A DNA stretch of 64,000 bases from Gemmatimonadota bacterium (GCA_009841265.1 VXMB01000014.1:353490-417489); one strand, 5' to 3'. Shown: positions 10,145-27,237, counted from the stretch's first letter. Notes: generated by a model from the sequence alone, not told the origin. Program-made: numbers and translations.

Positions 10145-10792
10145 ATGCCCGACTTTACGATCCTGTTCGTCGCCATGCCGGCGATCCTCTTCGCCCTGAC
10201 CTTTCACGAGTACGCCCATGCCTGGGCGGCGTGGAAACTGGGCGACCCCACGGCGCGCAGCATGGGACGGCTTTCGCTTAACCCCCTGGTGCATCTCGAC
10301 CCGGCCGGAACTATCATGCTGATCATCACCGTCATGAGCGGATTCGGCATCGGCTGGGCGAAACCCGTGCCGGTGGATCCCCGCTACCTGCGCAATCCAC
10401 GGAAGGACATGCTCTGGATCGCCCTAGCCGGGCCGGTGTCCAATATCATCCTGGCCTTCATCCTGGTGGGCGTCTTCACCCACATGCCCTCGAGCGGCGC
10501 CCTGACCGACACGCTGCGTCAGATGGTCCGGTACGGGATCATCATCAACCTGGCGCTGGCCTTCTTCAACATGCTGCCGATCCCCCCGTTGGACGGGTCG
10601 CGGGTCCTGAAGGGACTGCTGCCCCCGGCGCAGGCGCAGCGGTACGGCCAGCTGGAGATGTACGGCCCCATGCTGCTGATCGGCCTGATCATCGCGGACC
10701 AGATGCTCCGGCTGGGCATCATCCGGACGTGGATCGCCGTGCCCGCCCAGATCAGCCTGCGCCTGATGAGCGAAATCTTCAGCAGCTTCTAA
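10145..10792 (+). CDS. site-2 protease family (peptidase M50) membrane metalloprotease
   Basis: 215 aa. HEYAHAW (HExxH) in the first TM helix and an LDG motif. AGGAG RBS. Confidence 0.75.
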   Translation: MPDFTILFVAMPAILFALTFHEYAHAWAAWKLGDPTARSMGRLSLNPLVHLDPAGTIMLIITVMSGFGIGWAKPVPVDPRYLRNPRKDMLWIALAGPVSNIILAFILVGVFTHMPSSGALTDTLRQMVRYGIIINLALAFFNMLPIPPLDGSRVLKGLLPPAQAQRYGQLEMYGPMLLIGLIIADQMLRLGIIRTWIAVPAQISLRLMSEIFSSF

Positions 10793-12351: not shown

Positions 12352-13758
12352 ATGCATTACCTCATAGTATTTGTGATTGCGTTCGCGCTTTCCGTGATGG
12401 GCTGCGAAGGCAAGACAGGTCCGGCGGGTCCGACCGGCTCGGCGGGTGCCGCAGGTCCGGCGGGTCCGGCGGGTCCCCAGGGATCGACTGGTCCGACTGG
12501 CCCGGCTGGCCCGGCTGGCCCGAAAGGTGACACGGGTGATTCTGGTCCGGCGGGTCCGGCAGGTCCGGCAGGTCCGGCAGGCCCCGAAGGTCCGGCAGGT
12601 CCGGCAGGTCCGCAGGGTGATCCTGGTGACCCGGCCACCATTGATCCAGGCAGCATCGGTAACATCCTGGCGGCTATTCACGAGGTCACGCTGATCCAGG
12701 ATGGCAATGACGATGCCTCCAACACCTTCGCTGGTCCTGGTTTCGCTGAGGGCGATCCGGGTGATGACTGGAATGTTACGCTGGACATCGGTGCAACCAC
12801 TGAGATAGCCGCCACGGCTTCCGCGCAGAACGAGGAGTCCATCCCCGTCGCGTTTGCGTGGGCGTCGGAAGATGCCGAGGTCGCGACGGTCGATGACGGC
12901 GTTATCGAAGGAGTCGGCGCCGGGGAAACCGACATCTCTGTGACCGTTGTGGGACGCGGGATCAAGGTTTCCTTTGAAGTCACGGTCCTTTCGCAGGTCA
13001 AGAGTATCGTTATGGACAGCCCCGCTGACGGGTTCTTCCTCACCAATGGTGAATCTGTAGCCCTTGCAGCCACTGCCTATGACAAAGCTCAAGACGATAA
13101 GACGGCGGAAAGGGACGGCAAAGAGGTTCCAGTCAGTCCATCCTTCATGAGCTCCGACGACAGCGTGATCGAGATCGATGGTTCCGAGGCCAACGCGGTC
13201 GGCGTCGGTTCCGCCAAGATCACCGCGCACTACGGAGACGTTGCGTCCAAGGCGATTACGATCAACGTGACGCCGGGCGGCGATGTTACCCATAAGCTTA
13301 CCTACACCATAATTGCCGCCTCCAAGCGTACCTTCACCAGAATCTATCAGACCGATGGTGAGACGCTGATTTCAAATGATCCGGTTCGCGGCCCGAGTTA
13401 TGATCCTGGGGATGACGCCACCGCGGCTGGTTCCGGCGGCGTGGGCGAGAATGTCGTCTTTACAGTTCAGGTTAGAGAGTACGACTCAGAAGGCAATGCC
13501 CCGATAGACGAAGGCTTCTCCGGCTCCATAACAGCTACAATCCAGCAACAGGGTAGCGTACTTGGCGCCGTCGCCAGCTCGGTTTCTGTAGGCAATCCCA
13601 GCGCCGGCATCGTCCAGGTAACTGTGAATAACGACGGCGATGGTAGCCAAATCACCGGTGAAGGTACGGCGCGCATCATCCTGAGTCTCGACGGAGCGGA
13701 TGACATCGCCCTGCCGGCCGTAATCGTCAAGAAGCAGGTATTGGAGGAACCGAGCTGA
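12352..13758 (+). CDS. collagen-like triple-helix repeat lipoprotein with C-terminal Ig-like (Big_2-type) domains
   Basis: 468 aa. Signal plus lipobox (…ALSVMGC). About 24 uninterrupted Gly-X-Y triplets ([26 protein letters not shown]…). This is followed by beta-rich repeats with Big_2-like signatures ([43 protein letters not shown]). Confidence 0.75.
12418..12636 (+). repeat. 9-nt periodic collagen (GXY) coding repeats
   Basis: Repeated ggtccggc(a/g) units. They encode the G-P-A/G-P-T triplets. Confidence 0.7.
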
Positions 13759-13996: not shown

Positions 13997-14029
13997 CCCC
14001 GGCGCCCGAGCGCGCCGAGGCGTTTTATT
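13997..14029. terminator. putative bidirectional rho-independent terminator
   Basis: Stem ccccggcgc / gcgccgagg (8 of 9 bp) with loop ccgagc. Followed by cgttttatt on the plus strand and ctttcgtctttc on the minus strand. It lies at the 3' end of the lpxH-like gene. Confidence 0.35.
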
Positions 14030-14774
14030 CTGCAGGTTGCTCCTCGTCCCCGTACTTCTCCAGGAACATCTCGCCTTCGCGCAACACGCCATAGGTACCG
14101 TGCCGGATCCAGTCCCCGAGGTTGATATACGCCTTCTCGCCTCGATACTGGAGCGTCGGGCTGTGGATGTGCCCGAAGACCACCGCGTCGTAGCCTTCGT
14201 CGAGCAGGTCGAAGGCAAGGTCCCGGTAGGCTTCCCGCGGATCCCAGTCCGTGGGGGATCCATGACGCCTGCTCATCCGCGATATCAGCCGGCCGATCTT
14301 GAAGCCGCAGTCCGGGTGAATCAGCTGGAACAGGCGGATGCTGATCGCGCTGTGCATGATTTTCGATACCGCGCGGTATCCGCGGTCCCTGGTGATCAGG
14401 CCGTGGCCGTGGGCGACATAAATCCTGCGTCCGTGGTGGGTAGCGGTAAGCGGACCCTCCGCCGTTTCCACGCCGACCTGCTCGTTCAGAAAGGTTCCCA
14501 GCCAGAAATCGTGATTCCCCGGGAGGTATACGACCCGCGTGCCGTTCTCCACGAGCGAGCTCAAGGCGTGCAGTACCGTGTAGTGCTGGCGGGGCACGAC
14601 GCTGCGGTACTCGAACCAGAAATCGAATAGATCACCCACGATGTACAATAGCGGGGTCCCGCCCCTTAAGCTTCGCAGGAAGTCCAGCAACCGGTTTCTT
14701 CTCTCTTCTTCCGCCTCGTAATCGTCGATACCGAGGTGGGCGTCGGAAATGAAATAGACGGGATCTTGGCTCAT
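14025..14774 (-). CDS. LpxH-like metallophosphoesterase (UDP-2,3-diacylglucosamine diphosphatase family)
   Basis: Starts MSQDPVYFISDAHLG. GDLFDFW and GNHD motifs. I took the internal ATG at 14774 rather than the ORF-track start at 14855. Confidence 0.7.
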   Translation of the reverse strand: MSQDPVYFISDAHLGIDDYEAEEERRNRLLDFLRSLRGGTPLLYIVGDLFDFWFEYRSVVPRQHYTVLHALSSLVENGTRVVYLPGNHDFWLGTFLNEQVGVETAEGPLTATHHGRRIYVAHGHGLITRDRGYRAVSKIMHSAISIRLFQLIHPDCGFKIGRLISRMSRRHGSPTDWDPREAYRDLAFDLLDEGYDAVVFGHIHSPTLQYRGEKAYINLGDWIRHGTYGVLREGEMFLEKYGDEEQPAE

Positions 14775-14984
14775 AACAGGATCAGACCCGAAAAAGCACG
14801 GCAACCAAACCAGCCGGTTTTCCGGGCAACAGGGAGTATAACTTTGGATTGACAATTCACCTCGCGTGCGTTAATTAAAATACAATAGGCCATACATTTA
14901 ACTAACGAAATCTTTGGTCGCAATCGCAGTGCGCGAATGCCTCGGATTCGAGGCGTCGGCGTGGTGAACCGGAGAAGAGAACAG

Positions 14985-15407
14985 ATGGCGAGAAAGAAGC
15001 TGTCGTCGTTGACGGACCTGGAAATCGACATCATGAATGTCGTCTGGCGGCTGGGACGGGCGACGGTGCGCCAGATCGTCGATTCGCTTCGAAACCAGCG
15101 TCCCCTGGCGTACACCACGGTACAGACGGTCCTGTCCATACTCACTCAGAAGGGCGTGGTCCGGTATACCCGAGAAGGCCGGGCCTATGTCTACACCGCC
15201 ATCCTGAAACCCGAGGGCGTGCGCCGGGAAACCGTCCGGGCTGTCGTGGACAAGCTGTTCGCCGGATCGCCGCAGTCCCTGGTGCTGCACCTGATCGAAT
15301 CGGACGCGTTGACCGCGGAAGAAGCCGAGAGCCTGCGCAAACTGCTGGACCGGATGGCCTCGGAGTCGGTGGCGTCGGAGTCGAATCCGGAGGCATCGGA
15401 TGCTTGA
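14985..15407 (+). CDS. BlaI/MecI/CopY-family transcriptional repressor
   Basis: MARKKLSSLTDLEIDIMNVVW…TTVQTVLSILTQKG winged helix. It overlaps the downstream M56 sensor gene by 8 nt. Confidence 0.8.
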   Translation: MARKKLSSLTDLEIDIMNVVWRLGRATVRQIVDSLRNQRPLAYTTVQTVLSILTQKGVVRYTREGRAYVYTAILKPEGVRRETVRAVVDKLFAGSPQSLVLHLIESDALTAEEAESLRKLLDRMASESVASESNPEASDA

Positions 15408-17286
15408 TGCCGTCCACGCCATAGGCCTCTTCGAGCGGTTCGGCCGGGAGGTCGTGGACCTGCTGTGGCTTCCGAGCCTTGAAGCGTTGCTTCTCGGCGT
15501 CATGGTCTGGGCCCTGCTATTCGTGAACCCGGGATGCCCAGCCAGGATTCGGCACTTCCTCTGGCTGCTGGTTCTGGCCAAACCGCTGCTGACCCTCGTG
15601 CTGCCCTGGCATGGACCGTTCGAGATCCCGTGGGCGTCGATGGCGAGCCATGGATTGCCCGCCGCGGGCGATCACAACGCCCTGGCATCCGGAGTCTACG
15701 CCGTCGCGGGGCTGGTCTGGATGGGTTTCGCCGGTTTCGGCCTCTACCGCATCGGTTCATCGGTCATCACCATGTCCCGGCGAAGGCGGCGGTCCGTTCC
15801 GGTCGCCGTCCCCCGGGTAAGCGCGCTATTCGATCGGTGCCTGGCCGAATCGGGCTTGAAGCGCAGAGTGGCCCTGAGGGTCTCCGACGAGTTCGAGGTA
15901 CCCGTGCTGATCGCCGCCGGGCGCCCCGCCGTCGTGATTCCCTCCTGGTGCATCCTGGAACTTTCCAGCGCGGAGCTGAGGCAGGTCCTGCTTCATGAGC
16001 TGGCCCACTATGCCCGCCGGGATCACCTTACGGTCTTCCTGGTCCAGTTCTGCAGGTTCTTTTTCTTCTTCCACCCCGCGGTATGGTACGCCGCGTACCG
16101 GGCCGGGATCGAGGCGGAGCGGGCCTGCGACGCGGACGTCGTCCGTGTTTCCAGGCAGCCGGAGCGCTATGCATCCACCCTGTTGAAAGTTGCTGCGGGC
16201 AGGGTCCGGACGCACTGGCAGGCCGCCCTCGAACTGGCGCGGTCGGCCTCCATGGCGGCCCAGCGTATCCGGGACGTGCTCGGTTCGACGGTGAACCGGA
16301 AGGACCGCGCCTTCTTCCCGCTGCTGGCCGCCAGTATCTGCTCGCTGCTCGCGGTCATGCCCCTGTTGCGGCCGGCGGTCGAGGCCCCCGGAGACGTGCC
16401 TGTACCGCCACGAACGAGCATGCCCGGCGAACCGACGGTTCCCGGCCGGGTCGATACGGCGCCCGGTACGCAGCATCACGAAGATCCGGGCCCTGAGACG
16501 CAGGTCGCGCGGGTGGCGGACACGCCCCTGCCGCCGGACCGTCCGGCCAGTCGCAGGACCATGGTAGACGGCCGGCCCGCACCGCGCAGATCCATGGCCG
16601 CCAGGATGATAAAACCGGCGGTACCCCCTCGAGAAGGGATAGTCGAATCCACGAAGCGTGACCGGATCAACCCCGCCGTGCTCGGCCACGCCGCCCCACC
16701 GGTCATCCCGGATCGGACTTTGTCCGCGGGGAACCAGGCCAGGCAGAGACGTATCGAGGTGCAGGGCGTGGGCCGGACCGGCAATGAGCTGTTCGATCCC
16801 GGTACGGTCTCCCTGAGCGCCGGCTATTTCATTACACCGACCCACCAGTTCGGAGGCGTGTTTTCGATTCGAAAGCCCAACGATACGGAAGCATTTGACG
16901 ATACCCGGCGGCCTTCCGGCGCCCCGTACGGCGGTTCCCTCCTTCGGGCCCGGAGACTGGCCGGTTTCGGGACCTCGTCGGCCCAGGGAACGGTGCTTGA
17001 AACCTCAGAGGATGAGCAGGCCGAACGGATCACCCGGATCGGCGCCTTCTACCGGTACAATCTGCTCGTTCCGGGCGATTCCTTCACGCCTTTCTTCGGA
17101 TGGGGCGCCGGCCTGGAGATCAGGCCGCAGAACCGGAACATGACCATGATCGACGCCGGGGTCGGGCTGCGTTACTTCTGGGAACGGCACGTCGCCGTGG
17201 TCGTACAGGCATCCTACCGGAAGGAACTGGATGTCATCTCTCGTCCTTACCCTGAGATGACGCTGGGCTTTTCCGCGATCTTCTAG
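15400..17286 (+). CDS. BlaR1-like M56 peptidase/signal transducer with a proline-rich spacer and a C-terminal beta-barrel-like domain
   Basis: 628 aa. N-terminal TM helices and an HELAHYARRDH (HExxH) M56 motif. Pro-rich region at about aa 330-420. The C-terminus shows alternating hydrophobic strands and ends …LGFSAIF. Confidence 0.7.
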   Translation: MLDAVHAIGLFERFGREVVDLLWLPSLEALLLGVMVWALLFVNPGCPARIRHFLWLLVLAKPLLTLVLPWHGPFEIPWASMASHGLPAAGDHNALASGVYAVAGLVWMGFAGFGLYRIGSSVITMSRRRRRSVPVAVPRVSALFDRCLAESGLKRRVALRVSDEFEVPVLIAAGRPAVVIPSWCILELSSAELRQVLLHELAHYARRDHLTVFLVQFCRFFFFFHPAVWYAAYRAGIEAERACDADVVRVSRQPERYASTLLKVAAGRVRTHWQAALELARSASMAAQRIRDVLGSTVNRKDRAFFPLLAASICSLLAVMPLLRPAVEAPGDVPVPPRTSMPGEPTVPGRVDTAPGTQHHEDPGPETQVARVADTPLPPDRPASRRTMVDGRPAPRRSMAARMIKPAVPPREGIVESTKRDRINPAVLGHAAPPVIPDRTLSAGNQARQRRIEVQGVGRTGNELFDPGTVSLSAGYFITPTHQFGGVFSIRKPNDTEAFDDTRRPSGAPYGGSLLRARRLAGFGTSSAQGTVLETSEDEQAERITRIGAFYRYNLLVPGDSFTPFFGWGAGLEIRPQNRNMTMIDAGVGLRYFWERHVAVVVQASYRKELDVISRPYPEMTLGFSAIF

Positions 17287-17326: not shown

Positions 17327-18778
17327 ATGGATCATCATTCCCGAAGAGCGGTCCCGGCGCTCATCATCGCCGGCGGCGCGGGCGTGCGCCTTCAGGCGAT
17401 AACCGGCCCGGTGCCCAAACCTCTGTTGCACCTATGCGGCGTGCCGTTGATCAAGCGGATCATATTGACGGCCGCGCGTGCCGGCGTAACGCGCTTCGTG
17501 ATCGTAACGGGGTACGAGGCGGACCGATTTCACGAGGTCCTCTCCAACGATCCCGGTCTGGACGCCTGCCGGATTGAATGGGTGCACAACGAACGGTGGG
17601 ATCTGCCCAACGGGGTTTCCGCCCTGGCCGCCCGCTCCCGCCTGGCGGAACCGTTCGTGCTGCTCATGGCCGATCACCTCTTCGAGCAACGGACGCTGGA
17701 GCGTCTGCTCGAGGAACCGGTGGCCGAAGGGGAGTGCCTGCTCGCCGTCGACCGGAAAATCGACCGCGTGTACGACGTGGACGACGCGACCAAGGTCGAA
17801 GTGCGCGGGGATAAAGTGGTGCGCATCGACAAGGAACTGCAAGCGTTCAACGCGGTGGACACCGGCATGTTCCTCTGTACGCCGGCCCTGTTCGAAGCCC
17901 TCGATGCGGTGAACGGGCCGGAGGGATGCGCGTTGAGCGACGGCATCCGGGCGCTTGCCGCGGAAGGGCGGATGCGCGCCTTCGACGTGGGCGATGGTTA
18001 CTGGCAGGACGTGGATACGCCCGAGATGCTGGCCCAAGGCGAGAAGGCCCTGCTGGGACGCCTCGTAAAACCCACAGACGGATGGGTATCCCGGCATATC
18101 AACCGGCCGGTTTCAACCCGCATCAGCCGATGGCTGGTCCGGACGCCGGTCACGCCGAACATGGTGACCCTGGCCACCTTCCTTACCGGCCTGGCCGGGG
18201 CGTGGTTCGTGCTGGACGGCGCCTACTGGCCGGTGCTGCTGGGCGCGTTGCTTTTCCAGGTTTCGTCCATCCTCGACGGCTGCGACGGGGAGGTGGCGGT
18301 ACTGACCTTCCGTGAATCGAAATACGGCTCGTGGCTCGACACGATCACGGACAACCTGACCTACCTGGCGTTCTTCGCGGCCGTGGTCTGGGCCTACGCG
18401 GGCGGCTCCGGGGAAACGGTAATCCGGTACCTCGGCCTGGGATCCGTCGCCGTGGTGGCCGCCTCGATACTCGTAATGTACTATTATCTGCTGCAGACCG
18501 GGGGGAGCGGCAGCCTGGTCCGGTTCAACCGGGCCTTCGAAGCGCACGCCGTCGGACGGCGGCGCCATCTCTTCTCCAGGCTGCTCAACCTGTTCAGGAT
18601 GATGGCCAAACGAGATTTCTTTACCATGCTGCTGCTGTGTTTCGCCGCCCTCGACCTGCTGAACTGGATGTTCTGGACCGTTACGGCCGGCGGCCTGGCC
18701 ATGGGCCTGGCCATATTCATTTCGACGGGGAGGCTGCTGGCGCGGGACCGGGCGGTGGCCGGGGACATGCGCTCATGA
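17327..18778 (+). CDS. bifunctional sugar/alcohol-phosphate nucleotidyltransferase :: CDP-alcohol phosphotransferase (IPCT/DIPPS-like)
   Basis: 483 aa. N-terminus ALIIAGGAGVRL (NTP-transferase G-x-G-x-R-L). C-terminal TM domain with DGCDGEVAVLTFRESKYGSWLDTITD, matching D-x2-DG-x2-A(R)-x8-G-x3-D-x3-D with R replaced by V. HINRPVSTRISRWL precedes TM1. Confidence 0.7.
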   Translation: MDHHSRRAVPALIIAGGAGVRLQAITGPVPKPLLHLCGVPLIKRIILTAARAGVTRFVIVTGYEADRFHEVLSNDPGLDACRIEWVHNERWDLPNGVSALAARSRLAEPFVLLMADHLFEQRTLERLLEEPVAEGECLLAVDRKIDRVYDVDDATKVEVRGDKVVRIDKELQAFNAVDTGMFLCTPALFEALDAVNGPEGCALSDGIRALAAEGRMRAFDVGDGYWQDVDTPEMLAQGEKALLGRLVKPTDGWVSRHINRPVSTRISRWLVRTPVTPNMVTLATFLTGLAGAWFVLDGAYWPVLLGALLFQVSSILDGCDGEVAVLTFRESKYGSWLDTITDNLTYLAFFAAVVWAYAGGSGETVIRYLGLGSVAVVAASILVMYYYLLQTGGSGSLVRFNRAFEAHAVGRRRHLFSRLLNLFRMMAKRDFFTMLLLCFAALDLLNWMFWTVTAGGLAMGLAIFISTGRLLARDRAVAGDMRS

Positions 18779-19548
18779 GCGGATTGCTGGACCGTGCAAG
18801 GGGACTCTTCGCCCTCCGGCTCAGGAAGGACTTCAACTTCCGCAGGGCCCAGGAAACGGTCCCCGCGTTACGCTGGCTGAAGCCGCGCAAAGGCGAGCGT
18901 ATTCTCGATATCGGCTGCGGAGAAGGGACCTATGACTACCGGCTCGCCCTTCGGGGCGCCCGGGTGTTCGGTTTCGACCTGGACCGGAACCAGTTGCGCC
19001 GTGCCCAGGCCCACCACAAGACGCCCTTCACGGGTTTCGTCTGCGCCCATTCGGACGCGTTCCCCCTTCGGTCGGGGCAGTTCGACACGGTCATGAGCCT
19101 GTGTGTCTTCGAGCACCTGCCGGACGACAGGCAGACGCTGCGTGAGATGTGGCGCGTGTTGCGGCCCGGGGGGCGCATCCTGTTGACCCTGGACAGCCTG
19201 AGCCTCGAGGTGATCCGAGAGTCCTGGCGCGACGAGCACCGGAAACGCCATAGCGTCCTGCAGTTCTATACGCACCCGTCGGTCGGCTCGTTGCTGGAAG
19301 CCTGTGGATTCAGACTGATCAGGCACAGGTACCTGCTTCGTTCCCGGCTGGACCTGGCGTTGATCCGGCTGAGCTACGCCACGGAGCGCATGCACGCGGT
19401 CCCGGCGGCGTTGATCCGGTTGGGACTGGTATCGGCCGGCAGGATGGTATCCGCGGTCTTCAACCTGTTCACCGGGAACCAACGGGGATGGACCCTGTTG
19501 ATCGAAGCGGACAGGATGACCCCCGGTCCGGTGAATCCCCCATCATGA
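18775..19548 (+). CDS. class I SAM-dependent methyltransferase
   Basis: Starts MSGLLDRARG, overlapping the upstream stop as ATGA. ILDIGCGEGTY motif I and VFGFDLD motif II. The ORF-track start at 18331 is an out-of-context extension. Confidence 0.7.
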   Translation: MSGLLDRARGLFALRLRKDFNFRRAQETVPALRWLKPRKGERILDIGCGEGTYDYRLALRGARVFGFDLDRNQLRRAQAHHKTPFTGFVCAHSDAFPLRSGQFDTVMSLCVFEHLPDDRQTLREMWRVLRPGGRILLTLDSLSLEVIRESWRDEHRKRHSVLQFYTHPSVGSLLEACGFRLIRHRYLLRSRLDLALIRLSYATERMHAVPAALIRLGLVSAGRMVSAVFNLFTGNQRGWTLLIEADRMTPGPVNPPS

Positions 19549-21071
19549 CGCGTACCCAGGAACAGCCGGCTCCGACCCGGTCCCGGTCCGACGCATCGAC
19601 GATCGCCCGGGGCGCGGCCGTCAATTTCATTGGAACGGTAGCGCGGCTGATCAAGTCCGTGTCGTTCATCGTCCTAACGCGGCTGTTCGGCGCCGAGATC
19701 TTTGGGTTGTACATGCTCGGGTGGACCATCGTGGACCTCGTGTCGAAGGTCGGCCAGTTCTCGCTGGACAAGGGGCTGGTCAATTTCATCCCGCGCATGC
19801 GCGAGGACGGGGAAACGGAGGCCATCCACCGGACCATCGCGCAGGCCCTGGGCGTGGGCCTGCTGCTGAGCGCAGGGATCGGCGCCGCGCTCTATGCCGC
19901 TGCGGCTCCCCTGGCGGACGGCCTGCTCGACAAGCCCCGGCTTGCCGGCATGCTTCGGCTGCTGGCGGTCGGCCTGCCGCTCATCGCCCTGACCCAGATT
20001 ATCCTGGGCGTCACCCGGGCGCATAAGGTCATGAAGCACGACGCCATGGTCCGGGGCGCGGTCGAGCCGCTGGTGCTGTTCGGGGCGGCCTGTGTCCTGT
20101 TCTACCTGGGCTGGCGCACCTACGGCATCGCCGCGGCCCACCTGGCCGCGCTGGCCTGCGGCCTGCTATACGCCGTTTACGTGTTTACGAGGTTCTATTC
20201 CTGGCGGGCCTGTCTTGCCCACCTGCGCGCACTGCGGGCCGTCACCCCGCTGACCCGCTTCTCGCTGCCGGTCATGGGCTATGAACTGGTCTACATGTTC
20301 ATGATCCGCCTGGACGTGCTCATGGTCGGCTACTTTCTGCCGGCCGCACAGGTGGGGGTTTACGTGATCGCGGTCGAAATCGCCCTGGTGACCAAGAAGG
20401 TCCGGCAGTGGTTCGACCCCGTTTTCAGTCCCATCGTGGCCGAACTGAATCACCGCAACGACCTGCGGCGGCTGGAGCTCAACCTGCGGCTGGTCACCCG
20501 GTGGGTGCTGACCATCGGCCTGGCGTTCCTCTGCGTGGTGTCGCTGGTCGGTAACGAACTGCTTGGACTTTTCGGATCCGAATTCGTCGCGGGATTCATG
20601 ACGATGGTCGTCCTGGCCATGAGCCAGGTCGTCTACGCCGCCATGGGTTCGGGCGATACCGTGCTCATCATGTCGGGCCGGCCCTGGCTGAATCTCGTGA
20701 ATACGGTCGCGGTCGTGGCGGTCAATTTCGTCCTGAACCTGTGGCTGATACCGGCCCTGGGCATCCTGGGCGCGGCCCTGGGAACGCTGGCGGCTTTCGG
20801 GCTGTTGACGCTGATCCGCCTGGCCGAAGTGTATCACCTGTTCCGGATCCTTCCCCTGTCCTGGCGCATCCTGAAGCCATGCGCCGCAGCGGTCCCCGCC
20901 TTCGCGTGCGCTTACCTGGCGGGCGTCTACGCGCCGGATATCCCGTGGCTTCGCATGGCCGCGCTGCCCACGATCTTCCTGGCCGCCTACCTCGGCGTCC
21001 TGGGTCTCCTGGGGTTGGAAGAGGATGACCGGGTCGCCCTTCGACGCTTGCGCGGACGGGGCCGACCATGA
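19545..21071 (+). CDS. Wzx/MOP-superfamily polysaccharide or lipid flippase-like membrane protein
   Basis: About 508 aa from MTRTQEQP. Roughly 12-14 TM helices. The start overlaps the methyltransferase stop as ATGA. Confidence 0.65.
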   Translation: MTRTQEQPAPTRSRSDASTIARGAAVNFIGTVARLIKSVSFIVLTRLFGAEIFGLYMLGWTIVDLVSKVGQFSLDKGLVNFIPRMREDGETEAIHRTIAQALGVGLLLSAGIGAALYAAAAPLADGLLDKPRLAGMLRLLAVGLPLIALTQIILGVTRAHKVMKHDAMVRGAVEPLVLFGAACVLFYLGWRTYGIAAAHLAALACGLLYAVYVFTRFYSWRACLAHLRALRAVTPLTRFSLPVMGYELVYMFMIRLDVLMVGYFLPAAQVGVYVIAVEIALVTKKVRQWFDPVFSPIVAELNHRNDLRRLELNLRLVTRWVLTIGLAFLCVVSLVGNELLGLFGSEFVAGFMTMVVLAMSQVVYAAMGSGDTVLIMSGRPWLNLVNTVAVVAVNFVLNLWLIPALGILGAALGTLAAFGLLTLIRLAEVYHLFRILPLSWRILKPCAAAVPAFACAYLAGVYAPDIPWLRMAALPTIFLAAYLGVLGLLGLEEDDRVALRRLRGRGRP

Positions 21072-22357
21072 GATTCAGCGTAGTCCTGTTCGCGGATACG
21101 GACGCCCTGGCGGCCGGAGCCGGCCGGTCGATTTACGGCATATCGCTGCTGGAGCGACACCTCCGGGTCTTCGCATCCCTGGGGGCCCGGCAGGTCACGG
21201 TCGTCGGACCTTCGCCCGGGCGGGGATCGAACGTCCGGGAATCGAATATCCGGGTCGAGGGATTCGACGATCGCTGGTTCCGGGAACTGGACGCCGTCCA
21301 TTACGTACGTGCGGACGAAAGCCCCACCCGGTGGCTGCCCGGGAAGGACGAAAGGGCCCTGGTCATGGACGCCGGCCACCTGTACGACCCTCGGGTTCTA
21401 CGGGCCATGATCGACGGCAGCCCGAACCGGAGAGCCGAGGACTCGTCGGTCAGGGAATCCTGCAGGCTGCTGGTGGCGGACGCGGACCTCCTTGCAGGGA
21501 TCACGACGTCCTGGACCGGCTCCGAGTCGCTGTGGTCCGCGCTGGACTCGGTGCAGGAATCGGCCTGCCCGGTATTCGACCTGCGCGAAATGGATCCCTA
21601 TATCGTGGATCTGAGACGAAGTCTGCCCCCCTGGTGGCTGGTCGTCGATTCGGACCTGAAGATCCGCCGTGCGGAGGCCCTGCTGACCGACGCCGCGCAG
21701 AAGGGCACGCTGGATTTTCCCGCGGAGTTCATCCATCCGCCCCTTGAAAACCTGCTTACGAAATGGATTTCGGCCAGTACTGTGACGCCGAACCAGGTAA
21801 CCACCCTCTCTATACTGCTCGCCTTTCTGACCACCGGTCTTCTGGCCGCGGGACAGATGGGTACGGGATACCTGGCCGCCGGACTGGCGATCGCCTTTAT
21901 CGTCGGGGTGCTGGACGGTGTCGACGGCAAGTTGGCCCGCGTGACGGTGCGGTGCACCCGGTTCGGGGACCGTTACGAACATATCCTTGATGTGGTCTGG
22001 GAACTGACCTGGTATTGGGCACTGGGGTGGATGCTCAGTGCCGGCGGCGAGGCGGTCGGTCCTTTTGTGCTCGCCACGGTGATCACGTTATTTTACCTGT
22101 TTGACAAGGCGGCCACGGGGATGTTCAAGTCCAGGCAGGGCATAGAACTGTTTGACTATGCGCCCGTGGATCGCTTCTTTCGCCGTATCGGCGCCCGGCG
22201 AAATACGAATGTCCTGTTGCTGCTCGCGGGTATGGCGGTCGGCATGCTGGAGGAAGCGTTCACCTGCGTGGCGATCTGGACGGTGATCACGGCGGCGTTC
22301 CATTGGACGCGGGCGATCTGGCTGCTGTCGCAACCGTCGCCTGCCGACAGGTCCTGA
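21068..22357 (+). CDS. CDP-alcohol phosphotransferase with a divergent N-terminal cytoplasmic (nucleotidyltransferase-like?) domain
   Basis: 429 aa. The C-terminal TM domain has a canonical DGVDGKLARVTVRCTRFGDRYEHILD motif. The N-terminal 230 aa show no clear G-x-G-T-R motif. The start overlaps the flippase stop. Confidence 0.65.
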   Translation: MRFSVVLFADTDALAAGAGRSIYGISLLERHLRVFASLGARQVTVVGPSPGRGSNVRESNIRVEGFDDRWFRELDAVHYVRADESPTRWLPGKDERALVMDAGHLYDPRVLRAMIDGSPNRRAEDSSVRESCRLLVADADLLAGITTSWTGSESLWSALDSVQESACPVFDLREMDPYIVDLRRSLPPWWLVVDSDLKIRRAEALLTDAAQKGTLDFPAEFIHPPLENLLTKWISASTVTPNQVTTLSILLAFLTTGLLAAGQMGTGYLAAGLAIAFIVGVLDGVDGKLARVTVRCTRFGDRYEHILDVVWELTWYWALGWMLSAGGEAVGPFVLATVITLFYLFDKAATGMFKSRQGIELFDYAPVDRFFRRIGARRNTNVLLLLAGMAVGMLEEAFTCVAIWTVITAAFHWTRAIWLLSQPSPADRS

Positions 22358-22646
22358 TTCCGCCGGTCGAGAGAACTAAGGGAACCGGGTACGCTCGCCG
22401 GATGTGCCACTTCCGTGCATGGACCGGCCATCGCTATTTGTTGGATCAATAGGTGGACAGATGCGTCTAATATACTTGAGAAAGCGAGCATTTACGATTG
22501 CGGTGGGTCGACGCGTGAAGCGAGTCGGCGATTACGGCGACCACAGTGAGTCGGCGACTACATCGATTATGGCGGGTCGGCGACCACAGATATCACGGCG
22601 CGTCGACCCGTACGGTGAGAAGACCCCTGCGAGAAGCGGAGGCATC

Positions 22647-24050
22647 GTGTTTCGTGTTCTGGCTCACATCCTGGCGGTATTGCTGATCGCGGGGCCGGTA
22701 TTCGCGCAGAGCCCGAACGGACCCGTCCAGGCCGACCAGGATGACCAGGCCGTCCGGTCCGTCCAGGCTGTCCGGATGACGCTGGAACAATGCGTGGATC
22801 GGGCGCTGCGGGTCAGTCCGGATATCGAACAGGCTGTCCTTACCGTCGAAGGCCTGGAAGCCAGGTTGAGCGAAGCGAGATTCGCGGGCATCACACCCCG
22901 GTTGCAATGGACCAATATCTTCGGTCCCGCGCCGGGCATAGAAGGCGACACGGAACAGATCGAGACCATCCGGAGCGACCTGACCGATCTGGGCGTTTTC
23001 TCACGCACGCAGATCGAACTGGTTCAGCCACTGTACACCTTCGGGAAGCTCAGTAACGCGAAGAAGGCGGCCGGGTACGGTCTCGAAGCGGGCGAGGCGG
23101 CCGTGGAATCCCGGAAGTTCGACGTGGCGTTCCAGGTGAAGAAGCTGTTCTACGGACTCGTACTGGCGGGGGAACTCAGGGACATCATCCTGGATAGCGT
23201 AGAAAAGGTACAGGAGGCCCGGGACCGCGTAAACGAGATGATCGAGGAGGACTCGGAAGACGTCGGCCAGAACGACCTGTTGAAAATCGATGTCTTCGAA
23301 TTCGAGGTGCAGCAGAGCCGGGCGCGGGCCGAGAAGTCGATCGAAATGGGGAGGGCGGCGCTGAAGACCCTGCTCGAAATAGACCGCTCCGTTGATTTCG
23401 ATATCGTCCATACAGCCGCGGAGATCGAACCGGCGGACCTCGAAGAACTGGACGATTATATAGAACGGGCGAAGAACCGGCGGTACGACATCCGGCAGCT
23501 GAGGGCCGGAGTGCTGGCCCGCCGGGCGCTGCTGAAGGTGGCCAGGAGCGACTTCTACCCCCAGATCGCCCTGGCGGGATCGCTCCAGTGGGGCATCGCA
23601 CCGCACAGGCCGGAGCTCGACAATCCTTTTCTCAGGGACGAGTTCAATTTCCTTCGCGGCGGTGCCGTGATTACCTTGCGCCAGAACTTCAACTTCGGCC
23701 TGACCCGCGCGAAGTACATTGCCCGCAAGGTGGAACTGGAAGCGCTGGTGAGCAAGGAATCCCAGGCGATGAGCGCGGTCGCGCTGCAGGTGGAGCAGAC
23801 CTACCGCGACGTGATCGAGGCCCGTACCAACGTGGTCAACAGCGACCGGGCCCTTCGCTCCGCCAGGGCATGGCTGACATCGGCTCAACTGGGTTTCGAT
23901 GTTACCGGAGACAGTTCGGAACTGCTGGACGCGTTTACCGCGCATGCGAAGATGCAACATGCGTACCGGCAGTCGCTGTACCAGTACCGGGTTTCGCTGG
24001 CCGAACTCGGTCATGTGACCGGCAACGGGATTTACAATGGGCGGCGCTGA
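22647..24050 (+). CDS. TolC-family outer-membrane efflux protein
   Basis: GTG start 5 nt after GGAGG. Signal peptide VFRVLAHILAVLLIAGPVFAQ. Two repeated coiled-coil/barrel halves typical of OEP family members. Confidence 0.7.
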   Translation: MFRVLAHILAVLLIAGPVFAQSPNGPVQADQDDQAVRSVQAVRMTLEQCVDRALRVSPDIEQAVLTVEGLEARLSEARFAGITPRLQWTNIFGPAPGIEGDTEQIETIRSDLTDLGVFSRTQIELVQPLYTFGKLSNAKKAAGYGLEAGEAAVESRKFDVAFQVKKLFYGLVLAGELRDIILDSVEKVQEARDRVNEMIEEDSEDVGQNDLLKIDVFEFEVQQSRARAEKSIEMGRAALKTLLEIDRSVDFDIVHTAAEIEPADLEELDDYIERAKNRRYDIRQLRAGVLARRALLKVARSDFYPQIALAGSLQWGIAPHRPELDNPFLRDEFNFLRGGAVITLRQNFNFGLTRAKYIARKVELEALVSKESQAMSAVALQVEQTYRDVIEARTNVVNSDRALRSARAWLTSAQLGFDVTGDSSELLDAFTAHAKMQHAYRQSLYQYRVSLAELGHVTGNGIYNGRR

Positions 24051-24083
24051 TCACGGTGCCGCGTTTGAAGCACGGAACGGAGG

Positions 24084-25070
24084 ATGGGAATGAACCATAG
24101 GCGTGGGGAGGCGGGTTTGGGACGTGGTACATCGGCGCGCAAGGCGCGGTGCACGCCGGCGTACAAGGTGCAGAGCACGCCGGCAAGCAGAGCGCGGGGT
24201 TGGCCGGCCGGCAGGGCGTTCGGATTGCTGGCGGGCGCGGGCCTGCTGATCTGCGCCGCGTTCATCGATCCGTCTTCCGTCCTTCGCACGGACTCGGAGC
24301 CACAGGTGCTGACGGCCCCAGAGTCCAGGACGGCCTGGACGGTTTGGCCGCGGACCGCCTCGTTCTTTCCGGGTGTCGCGCGGGCGGACCATGCGGACCA
24401 TGCGGGCTATGCGGACTATGCGTCCCCTCCCCAGCGGGGCGATGGCCAACGAAAGTCCATCACGATCGAAGCCTTCGACGATTCGGCCCCGGGCGGCTTT
24501 CCCCTGACCTGGAAAGCCTGGCGGGGCGACGACGACCTGGCCCGCAGTTTGTACACGATACGGGAGGAGAAGGGCAACCGGTATCTCCACGCGGCAGACG
24601 ACGGCTCCTCCGTCATCATTCTCAAGCAAGTCAATGAATGGGATGCGAACGAATACCCGGTGCTGTCCTGGCGATGGAGGGCGACGGTCCTGCCCGAAGA
24701 CGGCGATGAACGCATCCGATCCAAAAACGACAGTTCCGTGGCCGTATACGTGGTCCTGGACCAGAACTTCATCGGCGTGCCCAAGACCCTGAAATATGTC
24801 TGGAGCACCACCGTGCCGGTCGGTACCCATTACCGCCGCGAAGGTATCGGCCGCCCCCACGTGATCGTACTCGAGACCGGAAAGGAGAAACTCGGACAGT
24901 GGGTCGAGGAGTCGGTCGACGTGCATGCGGACTATGTCCGGATCTTCGGGAAGAAGCCGCCCAGGAAAGCCGTCGGGATCGGCATTCTGACGGATGGCAA
25001 CGCGACGGGAACGGATTCCAGGGGAGATTACGACGACTTCGTGGTTCATCGCCGGGACTCCGGGTCCTGA
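24084..25070 (+). CDS. DUF3047-like secreted/membrane-anchored protein
   Basis: 328 aa. Hydrophobic N-terminal anchor. The C-terminal about 200 aa (FPLTWKAWRGDD…VLSWRWRATVLPEDGDE…YVVLDQNF) resembles the DUF3047 family. Assigned from memory only. Confidence 0.45.
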   Translation: MGMNHRRGEAGLGRGTSARKARCTPAYKVQSTPASRARGWPAGRAFGLLAGAGLLICAAFIDPSSVLRTDSEPQVLTAPESRTAWTVWPRTASFFPGVARADHADHAGYADYASPPQRGDGQRKSITIEAFDDSAPGGFPLTWKAWRGDDDLARSLYTIREEKGNRYLHAADDGSSVIILKQVNEWDANEYPVLSWRWRATVLPEDGDERIRSKNDSSVAVYVVLDQNFIGVPKTLKYVWSTTVPVGTHYRREGIGRPHVIVLETGKEKLGQWVEESVDVHADYVRIFGKKPPRKAVGIGILTDGNATGTDSRGDYDDFVVHRRDSGS

Positions 25071-25104
25071 TCCGGCCTGCAGCAAGAAAGGATGGAGGTG
25101 GGAA

Positions 25105-25704
25105 ATGCATGTGAATCGCCGTGCGGTCCGCCGCCTGGGACGCTTTACCGCCTGGGCTGCGGTGTCGCTGCTGGCTTTCGGGAGTTACGCGCAGGAATAC
25201 TCGCCCATCGAGACGCTGAAGCAGCGGGACGCCGCGCTACGCGCCCTGGACGGGGCCGCCACCGAAGCGGCAATGGACAGCCTGGTGCGCCATGCCGTCG
25301 TCTCCGGGTTCGATTTCGAACGGCACAGCCGCATTTCACTCGGCAGGCACTGGCGGGAGCGGACGGACACCGAGCGGGAGGAGTTCGTTTCGGTCCTGCG
25401 CAGGTGGACCGAAAGCCGGGCACTGGACAAGCTGCGCAAGCGATCGGACAGGACGACGTACGACGGGGAAGAAACCCGGGGCAGCCGGTCGCTGGTGAGA
25501 ACGACGCTATGGTACAAGGGCACTAAAACGCTCGTCGATTACAAGATGGAGCTCAAAGCGGGCGAATGGCTCATCTATGACATGGTGATCGACGGGGCGA
25601 GTGTCGCGCTGGCCAACCGGGACGCATTCTACAAGAAGATCAGCAGGACATCCTACGACGAATTGCTCAACACCCTGCGTGCGAAAACCCTTGAAATAGA
25701 ATAG
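25105..25704 (+). CDS. MlaC/Ttg2D-family periplasmic lipid-binding protein
   Basis: Starts MHVNRRAVRRLGRFTAWAAVSLLAFGSYA (signal peptide). GGAGG RBS. Typical MlaC length and helical composition. Confidence 0.65.
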   Translation: MHVNRRAVRRLGRFTAWAAVSLLAFGSYAQEYSPIETLKQRDAALRALDGAATEAAMDSLVRHAVVSGFDFERHSRISLGRHWRERTDTEREEFVSVLRRWTESRALDKLRKRSDRTTYDGEETRGSRSLVRTTLWYKGTKTLVDYKMELKAGEWLIYDMVIDGASVALANRDAFYKKISRTSYDELLNTLRAKTLEIE

Positions 25705-25784
25705 CGAAACGAGTATACTTTCAAGCCTGTACTGTATACTCGAATTGAGTAATGTAACGATGTCCTATGTTTTTAGGAGACGGA

Positions 25785-27227
25785 ATGGCGGCGACTGCCT
25801 ACAATCGATGTATCTTTTTCCTCGTCGACGGCGCACGGGAAGACGTCATGCGGAAAATGATCGAGGCCGGCGAACTTCCGTCCCTGCGGCGATACATCCT
25901 CGACCGGGGAGATTACCGGAAAGCGGTGACCTCGTTCCCGTCCACGACCGGTCCGGCCCATGTGCCCTTTTTGACCGGCTGTACGCCCGGTACGTGCAAT
26001 CTCCCCGGCATCCGCTGGTTCGACCGGTCCCAGCCGGAGGGGCTTACCCATTTCCGGCAGGCGCGCAGTTACGTGGGACCGGGTGGACTTTATATCGACA
26101 GCGATCTTAGGGACGGTATCCACACCATCTTCGAATATTTCGAACGCCCGGCGGGGGTGTTCAGCCTGGTGAACAAGGGGTTGGGCATATTCGAAAACCG
26201 GACGTTGCTGACCAGGAACTGGTACCTGTATTACGCCCATTTATCCGGCCGGTGGCAGGTCATGGACGCCGCGGCCTGGAGGTACATCGACCGGGCCGTC
26301 GACCGGGGCGTGGATTTCCTGTCGGTCGTATTCCCGGCGGTGGACGAATACTCCCATTATACCGATCCGTTTTCGGACACCACGTTGGAGGCCTACCGGG
26401 CATTCGACCGGGGATTCGGCGGGCTGGCGGAGCGGCTTCAGCAGCTGAACATGCTGGACGACACGCTTCTCGTGGTCTCCAGCGATCATGGCCTGACCTC
26501 CACCCATACGCATTTCGAGCTATGGTCCTTTCTCGACGAAATCGGATTCAATACGCTGTACTATCCCCGGATCCTGCGCGGTGGATGCGACGCGGCAATG
26601 ATGGTCTCGGGCAACGGCATGGCGCATATCTACCTGAAGAAGGGCGAAACCTGGGAAGAAAGGCCTTCATACGATGAGATCCGCGCATTGGGGGAAACCG
26701 ATCCCATCGAGGCCCTGCTCGAACAGGAGGCGGTAGACCTGGTGGCGGCGACCCGGGAGGACTCGGTCATCGTCTGCGGGCGCCGGGGGATCAGTGAAAT
26801 CAGGGAGATGCCCGGCGGTATCGGGTACCGGGTGCTCGAGGGCAAGGATCCTTTCGGCTACGGCGGCATGCCGGCCGAAGCGTCCCATGAGCAGATGCTC
26901 TCCGCCACGTACGACTCGGACTATCCCGACGCGCTTTACCAACTGCTGCGCGTCTTCGGTTCGCCGCGGTCCGGAGACATGATCGTCAGCGCCCGAAAGG
27001 GCTACGATCTGAGATTCCGGCATGAACATCCCGAGCACAAGTCGACCCACGGTTCATTGCATCGCGACCATATGCACGTGCCTTTGATGATGAACACGGA
27101 CATTGCGGCGGAATGCGTCCGCACCGTGGACGTGTTCCCCGCCATGCTGAACCTGACGGGACGTTCCGTCAGGGGTACCATAGACGGCAGAGATTCCGTC
27201 ACCGCCGCCACGCGCGCGGTGGCGTAG
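25785..27227 (+). CDS. alkaline-phosphatase-superfamily phosphodiesterase/nucleotide pyrophosphatase-like enzyme
   Basis: 481 aa from MAATAYNRCIFFLVDGARED (metal-binding D-G-x-R). AGGAG RBS. Type I phosphodiesterase fold signatures (SFPSTTGPAH, SSDHG). Confidence 0.65.
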   Translation: MAATAYNRCIFFLVDGAREDVMRKMIEAGELPSLRRYILDRGDYRKAVTSFPSTTGPAHVPFLTGCTPGTCNLPGIRWFDRSQPEGLTHFRQARSYVGPGGLYIDSDLRDGIHTIFEYFERPAGVFSLVNKGLGIFENRTLLTRNWYLYYAHLSGRWQVMDAAAWRYIDRAVDRGVDFLSVVFPAVDEYSHYTDPFSDTTLEAYRAFDRGFGGLAERLQQLNMLDDTLLVVSSDHGLTSTHTHFELWSFLDEIGFNTLYYPRILRGGCDAAMMVSGNGMAHIYLKKGETWEERPSYDEIRALGETDPIEALLEQEAVDLVAATREDSVIVCGRRGISEIREMPGGIGYRVLEGKDPFGYGGMPAEASHEQMLSATYDSDYPDALYQLLRVFGSPRSGDMIVSARKGYDLRFRHEHPEHKSTHGSLHRDHMHVPLMMNTDIAAECVRTVDVFPAMLNLTGRSVRGTIDGRDSVTAATRAVA

Positions 27228-27237
27228 GAGCATATTC

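Follow-up and report, generated by a model that had tools for sequence, protein, structure and literature searches.

Why should a sensor-protease of the BlaR1 type end in what looks like an outer-membrane β-barrel, and what could such a protein sense? The question is posed by a gene pair in a Gemmatimonadota bacterium (GCA_009841265.1, VXMB01000014.1:353490-417489). The window, that is, the whole stretch of 64,000 nucleotides that we analysed, contains at positions 14985-17286 the gene for a BlaI-like repressor, followed by a 628-residue open reading frame (ORF) in which a zinc-protease membrane domain is fused to a long linker and a C-terminal domain of predicted barrel fold. We propose that the two genes form a BlaI/BlaR1-type proteolytic switch with a sensor-protease that, by prediction, is embedded in both membranes, and we put the probability of this reading at roughly 60 %. 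The domain identities, the barrel prediction and the conservation of both the fusion and its neighbourhood were established by computation. From these we infer the localisation in two membranes, the direction of signalling, the nature of the cue, the cleavage of the repressor and the set of genes under its control.

The repressor gene (14985-15407, + strand) encodes a winged-helix protein of the BlaI/MecI family with 140 amino acids (aa; Pfam PF03965 Penicillinase_R, 115 bits, 2.7e-33). The ORF that follows (15400-17286, +) overlaps it by 8 nt, and its residues 1-326 (15400-16377) make up a BlaR1-type M56 zinc-metalloprotease membrane domain (Pfam PF05569 Peptidase_M56 on residues 23-290, 115.9 bits against a cut-off of 31, 2.7e-33). 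A first-pass annotation of the DNA had described a BlaI/BlaR1-type pair at these positions, with an M56 domain and a HELAH motif in the sensor-protease. Both points are borne out by the Pfam matches and by the motif itself, which occupies residues 199-203 (15994-16008). The fusion protein belongs to the MEROPS peptidase family M56, and together with the repressor it makes up a BlaI/BlaR1-type pair. A second motif, EAERACD, is found at residues 238-244, and H199, E200, H203, E238, E240, C243 and D244 are invariant among 49 sequences. H203 and E240 are 37 residues apart, as are H205 and E242 in S. aureus BlaR1.

In the full-length AlphaFold2 (AF2) model, residues 1-320 have a predicted local distance difference test score (pLDDT) of 70-90. 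Foldseek matches the model to the cryo-electron microscopy structures of S. aureus BlaR1 (8ext, 8exs, 8exp, 8exq and 8exr; E 3e-6 to 3e-4), with a template modelling (TM) score of 0.60 against chains comprising only the transmembrane and protease part. The NCBIfam model blaR1_generic reaches 77 bits against a cut-off of 400 and is matched at positions 123-315 of 585 only, which is the protease part. Hydropathy reveals four hydrophobic helices, with an RRRRR cluster after helix 3 and the last helix at ~303-326. In BlaR1, the part C-terminal to the membrane helices lies outside the cytoplasm (PMC7593790). The helix set and the RRRRR cluster fit this topology, and the C-terminal part is thus expected outside the cytoplasm.

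What folds there? The domain spans residues 451-628 (16750-17283). We modelled it on its own, using a 26-sequence alignment of the domain, and obtained a mean pLDDT of 70.6, a predicted TM score (pTM) of 0.63 and exactly eight long strands at pLDDT 80-93 (residues 452-460, 470-477, 482-491, 544-554, 562-574, 580-595, 598-609 and 617-627; the range of strand lengths is reported as 9-16 residues). Domain residues 53-95 (498-540 of the protein) form a disordered loop. Foldseek returned 23 matches in the PDB at E <= 1e-3, every one of them an outer-membrane barrel or a designed transmembrane barrel. The N-terminal domain of OprF was the best match (E 4.4e-6, TM 0.78, probability 1.00); others were Ail, a designed transmembrane barrel (TM 0.72), NspA, the OmpA transmembrane domain (0.68), OmpW, PagL and OmpX. 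No lipocalin, avidin or other soluble barrel was found among the significant PDB fold matches. The model settles on a predicted 8-stranded β-barrel of the outer-membrane type. The confidence in this fold comes from the domain-only run, since the full-length model is weak in this region.

The sequence of the domain points the same way. Its strands alternate between a face of aliphatic and aromatic residues and a face of Gly, Ser and charged residues, so that the amphipathic periodicity remarked on in the first-pass annotation is seen throughout the family. Invariant in the 49 sequences are about a dozen Gly residues together with E453, R552, E573, R591 and K608; these invariant charged and Gly residues occupy one face, and drifting I/V/L/F the other. 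The last strand, EMTLGFSAIF (residues 619-628; 17254-17283), resembles a β-signal: it is hydrophobic at -1, -3, -5, -7 and -9 counted from the C-terminus, L622, G623 and F628 are invariant in the 49 sequences, and the terminus reads [AT]IF at 30 of 30 loci. The first-pass annotation had described a barrel-like C-terminus of about 200 aa ending in GFSAIF. The terminus stands and the barrel reading is supported as a prediction, by the eight strands, the fold matches to outer-membrane proteins (OMPs), the invariant Phe and the weak profile links to OMPs described below, but the domain itself is shorter, at ~178 aa. Sequence entropy and indels peak in a single loop between strands 3 and 4 (residues 492-543; 16873-17028), which has a conserved core, LLRARKLAGFG. 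The variable part of the domain, ~52 residues, is confined to this loop, predicted to face outward as surface loop L2. With both barrel termini in the periplasm, the turns at 478-481 and 596-597 would be periplasmic and the loop at 492-543 would lie on the surface, an arrangement familiar from classical OMPs.

Profile searches gave weak links in the same direction. The NCBIfam model OMP_myx_plus (TIGR04565), which describes an outer-membrane barrel domain, matches most of the domain at E 1.8e-4. Outside the family, the first profile match other than repeat junk was P0100, a protein of 156 aa with a lipoprotein-type signal peptide and a terminus reading ...GLRVIW, which itself matches Pfam OMP_b-brl PF13505 (3.7e-5, 24.4 bits; threshold 28.7). 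Aligned with hhalign, the domain profile and P0100 reach a probability of 93.9 %, on a thin alignment because the P0100 family has two members only. The two, P0100 and P0101, are metagenome proteins of 156-158 aa with a hydrophobic, signal-like start and an aromatic C-terminal residue; a lipobox-like LTAC is present in P0100 and missing from P0101. No other relatives of the barrel domain outside the fusion turned up among 1.84 billion proteins. A sequence search of PDB chains with the C-terminal 228 aa gave nothing meaningful. Pfam, searched at E <= 10 with the isolated C-terminus and with two divergent relatives, gave nothing either, OMP families included; this covers transpeptidase and other soluble domains, among them TonB_C and penicillin-binding protein (PBP) domains, the soluble assignments that the first-pass annotation had set against a barrel. 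Among fourteen other, more distant M56 proteins that we inspected, none has a barrel-like C-terminus.

The same domain could be read differently, as the sensor of a conventional inner-membrane BlaR1-like protease, in which a soluble periplasmic β-barrel or β-sandwich binds a periplasmic ligand. Soluble barrels also alternate hydrophobic and polar residues, the comparison of conservation between the two faces is not significant, the scores stay below all curated OMP thresholds and AF2 models the domain poorly within the full-length protein, all of which would suit such a sensor. Yet the significant fold matches are all outer-membrane barrels and the strands are 9-16 residues long. A soluble domain would also leave the invariant Gly and charged residues on one face, the drifting I/V/L/F on the other and the invariant terminal Phe to be explained, along with the homology to a signal-peptide-bearing, OMP_b-brl-like protein. 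Finally, a spacer of ~124 residues whose length is conserved has no obvious purpose at the inner membrane. We consider a soluble sensor unlikely and retain the predicted outer-membrane barrel.

Between the protease and the predicted barrel lies the linker, residues 327-450 (16378-16749), which is predicted to be disordered (AF2 pLDDT < 40 throughout) and periplasmic. It comprises ~124 aa, of which 19 % are Pro in the window protein. The first-pass annotation was correct in seeing a Pro-rich spacer here, but had put it at ~90 residues. Pro-richness is moreover a trait of the window protein's clade, the Pro content ranging from 7 to 19 % across the family. Its label 'TonB-like' holds as a loose analogy only, as no TonB-type (EP)n/(KP)n repeats are visible in the linker sequences. 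In most relatives the linker measures 123-132 aa, and in one subclade 153-162. Length is held while sequence drifts, as expected for a tether that bridges a fixed distance. Two motifs escape the drift, with the family forms MVDGRPxPRRSM and INPAALG; in the window protein they read MVDGRPAPRRSM (residues 388-399; 16561-16596) and INPAVLG (residues 423-429; 16666-16686). They could be partner-binding, peptidoglycan-binding or processing sites.

The barrel has no separate cleavable N-terminal Sec signal peptide, since it follows the M56 domain and the linker in one ORF, and its export would therefore rely on the last transmembrane helix. This invites a second alternative, in which the fusion is a delivery form: the linker would be cut after export to release a free OMP and a separate M56 protease, or cleavage of the tether would itself be the signal. 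Release by signal peptidase right after the last helix we judge unlikely, as a Pro at +1 disfavours cleavage by signal peptidase I and such a Pro is conserved at this position (AVEA-P). The conserved length of the linker suggests a spanning role instead, and the domain is never encoded separately, though that would be a simpler route to a free OMP. On the other side, the two motifs are kept in an otherwise drifting linker, and C-terminal fragments of Dma1, a Bacteroidota protein with a similar layout to which we return below, are found in vesicles (PMC10927553). Overall, we give cleavage of the linker little chance and favour an intact tether between the protease and the predicted barrel.

If the barrel is the input, the repressor would be the output. 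Its start is conserved: the ATG at 14985, with a preceding GGAG-containing stretch, is kept in 26 of 26 aligned loci, and a longer ORF from 14937 is unlikely given this conserved start. The protein aligns over its full length with the structures of MecI, S. aureus BlaI and M. tuberculosis BlaI (3e-14 to 6e-13). It also keeps the context of the cleavage site, SLVLH|L standing opposite the known scissile SLVLN|F (ALVH|F in M. tuberculosis). Wherever both parts of the fusion are present (29 loci), the blaI-like gene lies directly upstream, which answers the question of whether homologues co-occur with a BlaI-type repressor. The 8-nt overlap with the M56 gene is also seen in distant relatives and suggests coupled expression.

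Upstream of the pair, towards a divergent LpxH-like gene, an alignment of 26 loci reveals a conserved block at 14840-14906 (~67 bp; AACTTTGgATTGACAAttca...GCGTTAATTAAAATACAnnnGGnCATAyATTTAACTAc), which we presume to hold promoter and operator; its flanks are not conserved. A TTGACA at 14849-14854 is kept at >= 90 % of the 26 loci. Over this -35-like element lies a 15-bp palindrome, TGGATTG-A-CAATTCA (14845-14859), which is the dyad best conserved in position and occurs once in the 64-kb window. On sequence grounds we regard it as the best candidate for an operator.

A third alternative does away with transcriptional signalling altogether. Here, the M56 domain would be a protease or tether for envelope maintenance, for instance in linking the membranes or in vesiculation, while BlaI regulates the operon independently. 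The neighbours are envelope-lipid and transport genes, and neither a cue nor a canonical operator has been identified, which would be compatible with such a role. Against it, all intact loci show the 8-nt overlap between repressor and protease genes, the pairing has no exception, the context of the BlaI scissile site is kept and the catalytic residues are invariant. In addition, the protease controls the repressor in every BlaI/BlaR1 pair studied (PMC7593790). A non-signalling role is thus very improbable.

Is the fusion real? A search with the full-length protein retrieved about 65 protein clusters of 626-669 aa, with 38-100 % identity and 100 % coverage, one of them identical to the window protein; the source labels are those of Gemmatimonadetes or Zixibacteria proteins from metagenome-assembled genomes (MAGs). 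When only the C-terminal domain served as query, a word-indexed search for homologues gave no more than three fragments, and the family surfaced with the full-length query. When 1.84 billion representative proteins were searched exhaustively by profile, six clusters (at 50 % identity) reached E < 1e-10, all of 629-641 aa, in which the domain is always fused to M56 and never forms a separate gene. The C-terminal domain is carried by 25 of 185,579 species-representative genomes, with one locus per genome. The carriers are all MAGs, labelled Latescibacterota, Gemmatimonadota or Zixibacteria, and include several complete chromosomes of 3.7-3.9 Mb from different projects. Latescibacterota belong to the Fibrobacterota-Chlorobiota-Bacteroidota (FCB) group, and the family is confined to a narrow, uncultured FCB-group lineage.

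The M56 and C-terminal parts share a single open frame, with HExxH present, at 27 of 29 loci; the exceptions are L001, with a scaffold gap, and L026, with a frame change. No start codon, signal peptide or intergenic gap was found between the two parts. The neighbourhood is conserved as well: a gene for an NTP-transferase/CDP-alcohol transferase follows directly downstream at 29 of 29 loci, and the divergent LpxH-like gene is present at 26 of 29, that is, at every locus that reaches so far. An assembly or gene-calling artefact that joined an M56 gene to an adjacent small OMP gene, as the broken frames at L001 and L026 might suggest, is ruled out by the single frame at 27 of 29 independent loci, complete chromosomes included, and by the about 65 full-length clusters. 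The fusion of M56 and predicted barrel is confirmed as real, rather than a product of chance or misassembly. At L026 (~4047-4640, in a Latescibacterota MAG), the M56 and barrel parts lie in different frames, which may reflect a sequencing or assembly frameshift or a split or degraded copy.

How, then, might the proposed dual-membrane switch work? In the inner membrane, residues 1-326 would make up an M56 zinc protease of four helices whose active site faces the cytoplasm. Its last helix would export the remaining chain, whose disordered linker of ~124 residues would cross the periplasm. The β-barrel assembly machinery (BAM) would then insert the barrel into the outer membrane by means of the ...GFSAIF signal, leaving the variable loop of ~52 residues on the surface. 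A change in the outer membrane or at the surface could be relayed through the tether to the last helix and from there to the protease. The cue could be a ligand that reaches the surface loop, damage to this loop, an altered lipid state of the outer membrane, or a change in the distance between the membranes. The activated protease would cleave the BlaI-like repressor near SLVLH|L, in the dimerisation region. Cleavage would derepress the divergent promoter region, and with it likely the switch's own operon and the downstream envelope-lipid genes, and possibly the LpxH-like gene.

Carried to its end, this scheme describes an independently evolved line in one polypeptide, in which the state of the outer membrane or surface (lipid or lipopolysaccharide, damage, a ligand or the inter-membrane distance) would act on the protease through the barrel with its surface loop and a tether of tuned length, BlaI would be destroyed, and the lipid A-related LpxH-like gene and the envelope phospholipid, flippase and Mla genes would be switched on. 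We offer this extended version tentatively and hold it, taken as a whole, to be less likely than not.

Several observations weigh against the dual-membrane switch. The family sequences all come from uncultured MAGs, and the support for the switch is computational. Modelled by AF2 as part of the whole protein, the barrel region attains pLDDT 40-60 only, which is too weak to interpret; the closed barrel is read from the strands of the domain-only model and its fold matches, and a hydrophobic belt was approached through the conservation of the two faces. No curated OMP threshold is reached: TIGR04565 scores 21.6 bits against a cut-off of 60, and a direct Pfam match is lacking. With 16 invariant columns on the polar face and 10 on the hydrophobic face, the difference in conservation has the direction expected of a barrel but falls short of significance (p about 0.10). 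Even for Dma, the handover of an inner-membrane-anchored chain to BAM awaits an explanation (PMC10927553). As to the operator, the palindrome is present with <= 1 mismatch at 10 of 26 loci only, and neither the BlaI/MecI/CopY box TACAnnTGTA nor looser TACA...TGTA spacings are found in the intergenic region. The BlaI-type dyad that the first-pass annotation had suggested looking for is therefore absent in its classical form, and the best operator candidate is a different palindrome. A scan of the intergenic region with the sigma-70 consensus detected no promoter, nor does a good -10 hexamer lie 16-18 nt from TTGACA.

The genes around the switch may hint at what it controls. The divergent gene (14025-14774, - strand) encodes a calcineurin-type metallophosphoesterase (Pfam Metallophos 1.2e-12). 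Its translation probably starts at the ATG at 14774; called mechanically, the ORF opens with a TTG at 14855. The LpxH-like assignment made in the first-pass annotation is upheld, with scores of 87 and 80 bits against the NCBIfam LpxH equivalogs that fall below the cut-offs of 134 and 190. Beside the start of this gene, at ~14795-14830, lies a GC-rich hairpin, which the LpxH-like mRNA, transcribed from the - strand, would carry in its 5' leader. The pairing of the hairpin survives sequence change across loci, where variants such as CCGGGAACCGGTCGGTTTTCCCGG occur.

Downstream of the pair, a tightly packed envelope-lipid gene cluster (17327-28347, +), defined by Pfam, NCBIfam and synteny, encodes the NTP-transferase/CDP-alcohol transferase, an S-adenosylmethionine (SAM) methyltransferase, a Wzx-type flippase, a second CDP-alcohol transferase, a TolC-like outer-membrane efflux protein (OEP), a DUF3047 protein, MlaC, a type I phosphodiesterase and a radical SAM protein. 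The genes share one strand and either overlap or are separated by tiny gaps, in which we found no terminator-like sites, and synteny is retained down to about 40 % identity; the cluster is possibly co-transcribed. LpxH-like, TolC-like OEP and MlaC genes share the locus, which shows that the host is a diderm with outer-membrane barrels. The neighbours include no beta-lactamase or PBP gene, and the conserved neighbourhood no sigma factor gene.

Further features of the window stand apart from the switch itself. For the first gene of the cluster (17327-18778, +), the best model is an archaeal inositol-1-phosphate cytidylyltransferase/DIPP synthase (241 bits against a cut-off of 580). Together with the methyltransferase, the flippase and the second CDP-alcohol transferase (21068-22357, +), it may form a CDP-alcohol-dependent head-group or inositol-lipid pathway. 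An ORF of 468 aa (12352-13758, +) contains collagen-like Gly-X-Y repeats (Pfam Collagen 3e-13; Scl/Lcl adhesin-like) followed by Big_2. It sits in the lowest-GC stretch of the window (0.574) and looks inserted, since it is missing at L001, L003 and L005, where MR_MLE adjoins the LpxH-like gene. A few genes upstream of the BlaI/M56 pair, 10145-10792 (+) encodes a 215-aa peptidase of the M50 family (site-2 protease-like), which is also found at L001, L003 and L005 and has a possible link to the switch. On the other side of the cluster, an ORF of 1938 aa (28344-34160, -) with two UvrA interaction domains, two UvrA DNA-binding domains and ABC ATPase modules looks like a tandem-duplicated 'double' UvrA, about twice the usual length of UvrA. 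Rfam and tRNA scans of the window were empty.

The presence of an M56 protease next to a BlaI-type repressor invites comparison with BlaR1/MecR1 and BlaI/MecI of Staphylococcus and Bacillus. The M56 fold and its catalytic motifs are common to both, an extracytoplasmic part is joined after the last helix, and a BlaI-family repressor is encoded next door. In BlaR1/BlaI, a change in the sensor activates the protease, the repressor is cleaved and its targets are derepressed (PMC7593790), and we presume the same logic for the window pair. The sensor, however, differs. BlaR1 possesses a penicillin-binding domain resembling class-D beta-lactamases, whereas the window protein has a tether and a predicted barrel instead. 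BlaR1 and MecR1 control beta-lactamase or PBP2a through TACAnnTGTA operators, whereas the window pair has envelope-lipid neighbours, no such box and a diderm host. With the penicillin-binding domain and bla/mec targets absent, the window protein is not a BlaR1/MecR1 beta-lactam sensor.

M56 domains have been joined to outer-membrane-dealing modules before. The M56-TonB_C fusions of Gram-negative bacteria, such as TonB1 and TonB10 of B. thetaiotaomicron, which are uncharacterised (PMC10350073), likewise combine an M56 domain, a spacer that crosses the periplasm and a module that deals with the outer membrane. There, TonB_C docks to TonB-dependent transporters, whereas the window protein has no TonB_C (no PF03544 match at E <= 10) and is predicted to be inserted into the outer membrane. 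With the small barrels of the Pfam OMP_b-brl clan, namely the N-domains of OmpA and OprF, OmpX/Ail, NspA, OmpW and PagL, the C-terminal domain shares eight predicted strands, short turns on the periplasmic side, a single long loop that faces outward, a polar lumen rich in Gly with invariant charges and a C-terminal Phe. These barrels have a cleavable signal peptide, whereas here the barrel forms the C-terminus of an inner-membrane protein and its similarity lies under curated thresholds. In function, the FecA-FecR-FecI system would be analogous: there, too, information travels from the outer membrane or surface to a transcription factor in the cytoplasm, with the help of regulated proteolysis. 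Fec employs three proteins, TonB energy and a sigma factor as output, whereas one polypeptide would make the connection here, with a repressor as output.

The closest architectural parallel is provided by the Dma anti-sigma factors of Bacteroidota, in which an anti-sigma domain is followed by a helix in the inner membrane, a long disordered stretch and an 8-stranded barrel at the C-terminus (PMC10927553). Very few proteins are integral to both membranes of a diderm bacterium. Dma resides in both membranes as a single polypeptide, as demonstrated by experiment; Dma1 was called the first such protein, and its authors reported no similar proteins outside Bacteroidota (PMC10927553). The layout of a cytoplasm-facing module, one or more inner-membrane helices, a disordered tether and a C-terminal barrel is common to both, though only predicted for the window protein, and both are paired with the gene of a transcription factor in a host from the FCB group. 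The cytoplasmic modules differ: in Dma, an ECF21 sigma factor (ECF, extracytoplasmic function) is sequestered by an anti-sigma domain with a single helix, and the window protein has a four-helix M56 protease that would act on a BlaI-type repressor. Likewise, the Dma1 barrel is annotated as Pfam OMP_b-brl_2, whereas the window domain has no match to PF13568 at E <= 10 and belongs to a lineage outside Bacteroidota. Full-text literature searches found no paper describing an M56-barrel fusion, and the later preprint on Dma2 does not mention BlaR or M56. The first-pass annotation had suggested an envelope-spanning transducer of a different kind from beta-lactam sensors. Such a layout is supported as a prediction and the protein is no beta-lactam sensor, but Dma is a published precedent for the architecture.

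Taken together, the best reading is a dual-membrane switch whose architecture parallels that of Dma, while its output module differs and its hosts belong to another phylum of the FCB group. Should this be confirmed, the window protein would represent a second class of dual-membrane regulator that arose from a separate fusion of modules, with a zinc protease and repressor in place of an anti-sigma and sigma factor. Tethering a barrel to an inner-membrane regulator would then be a recurring solution to surface sensing that dispenses with TonB-dependent relays, and the inputs of BlaR1-type switches would extend beyond beta-lactams. It would also link dual-membrane sensing to envelope-lipid genes and provide a compact system in which to study how an inner-membrane-anchored chain is handed over to BAM. 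Should the extended scheme prove true as well, it would constitute a direct feedback loop for outer-membrane homeostasis, and dual-membrane regulators would be a general design rather than a peculiarity of the anti-sigma factors of Bacteroidota.

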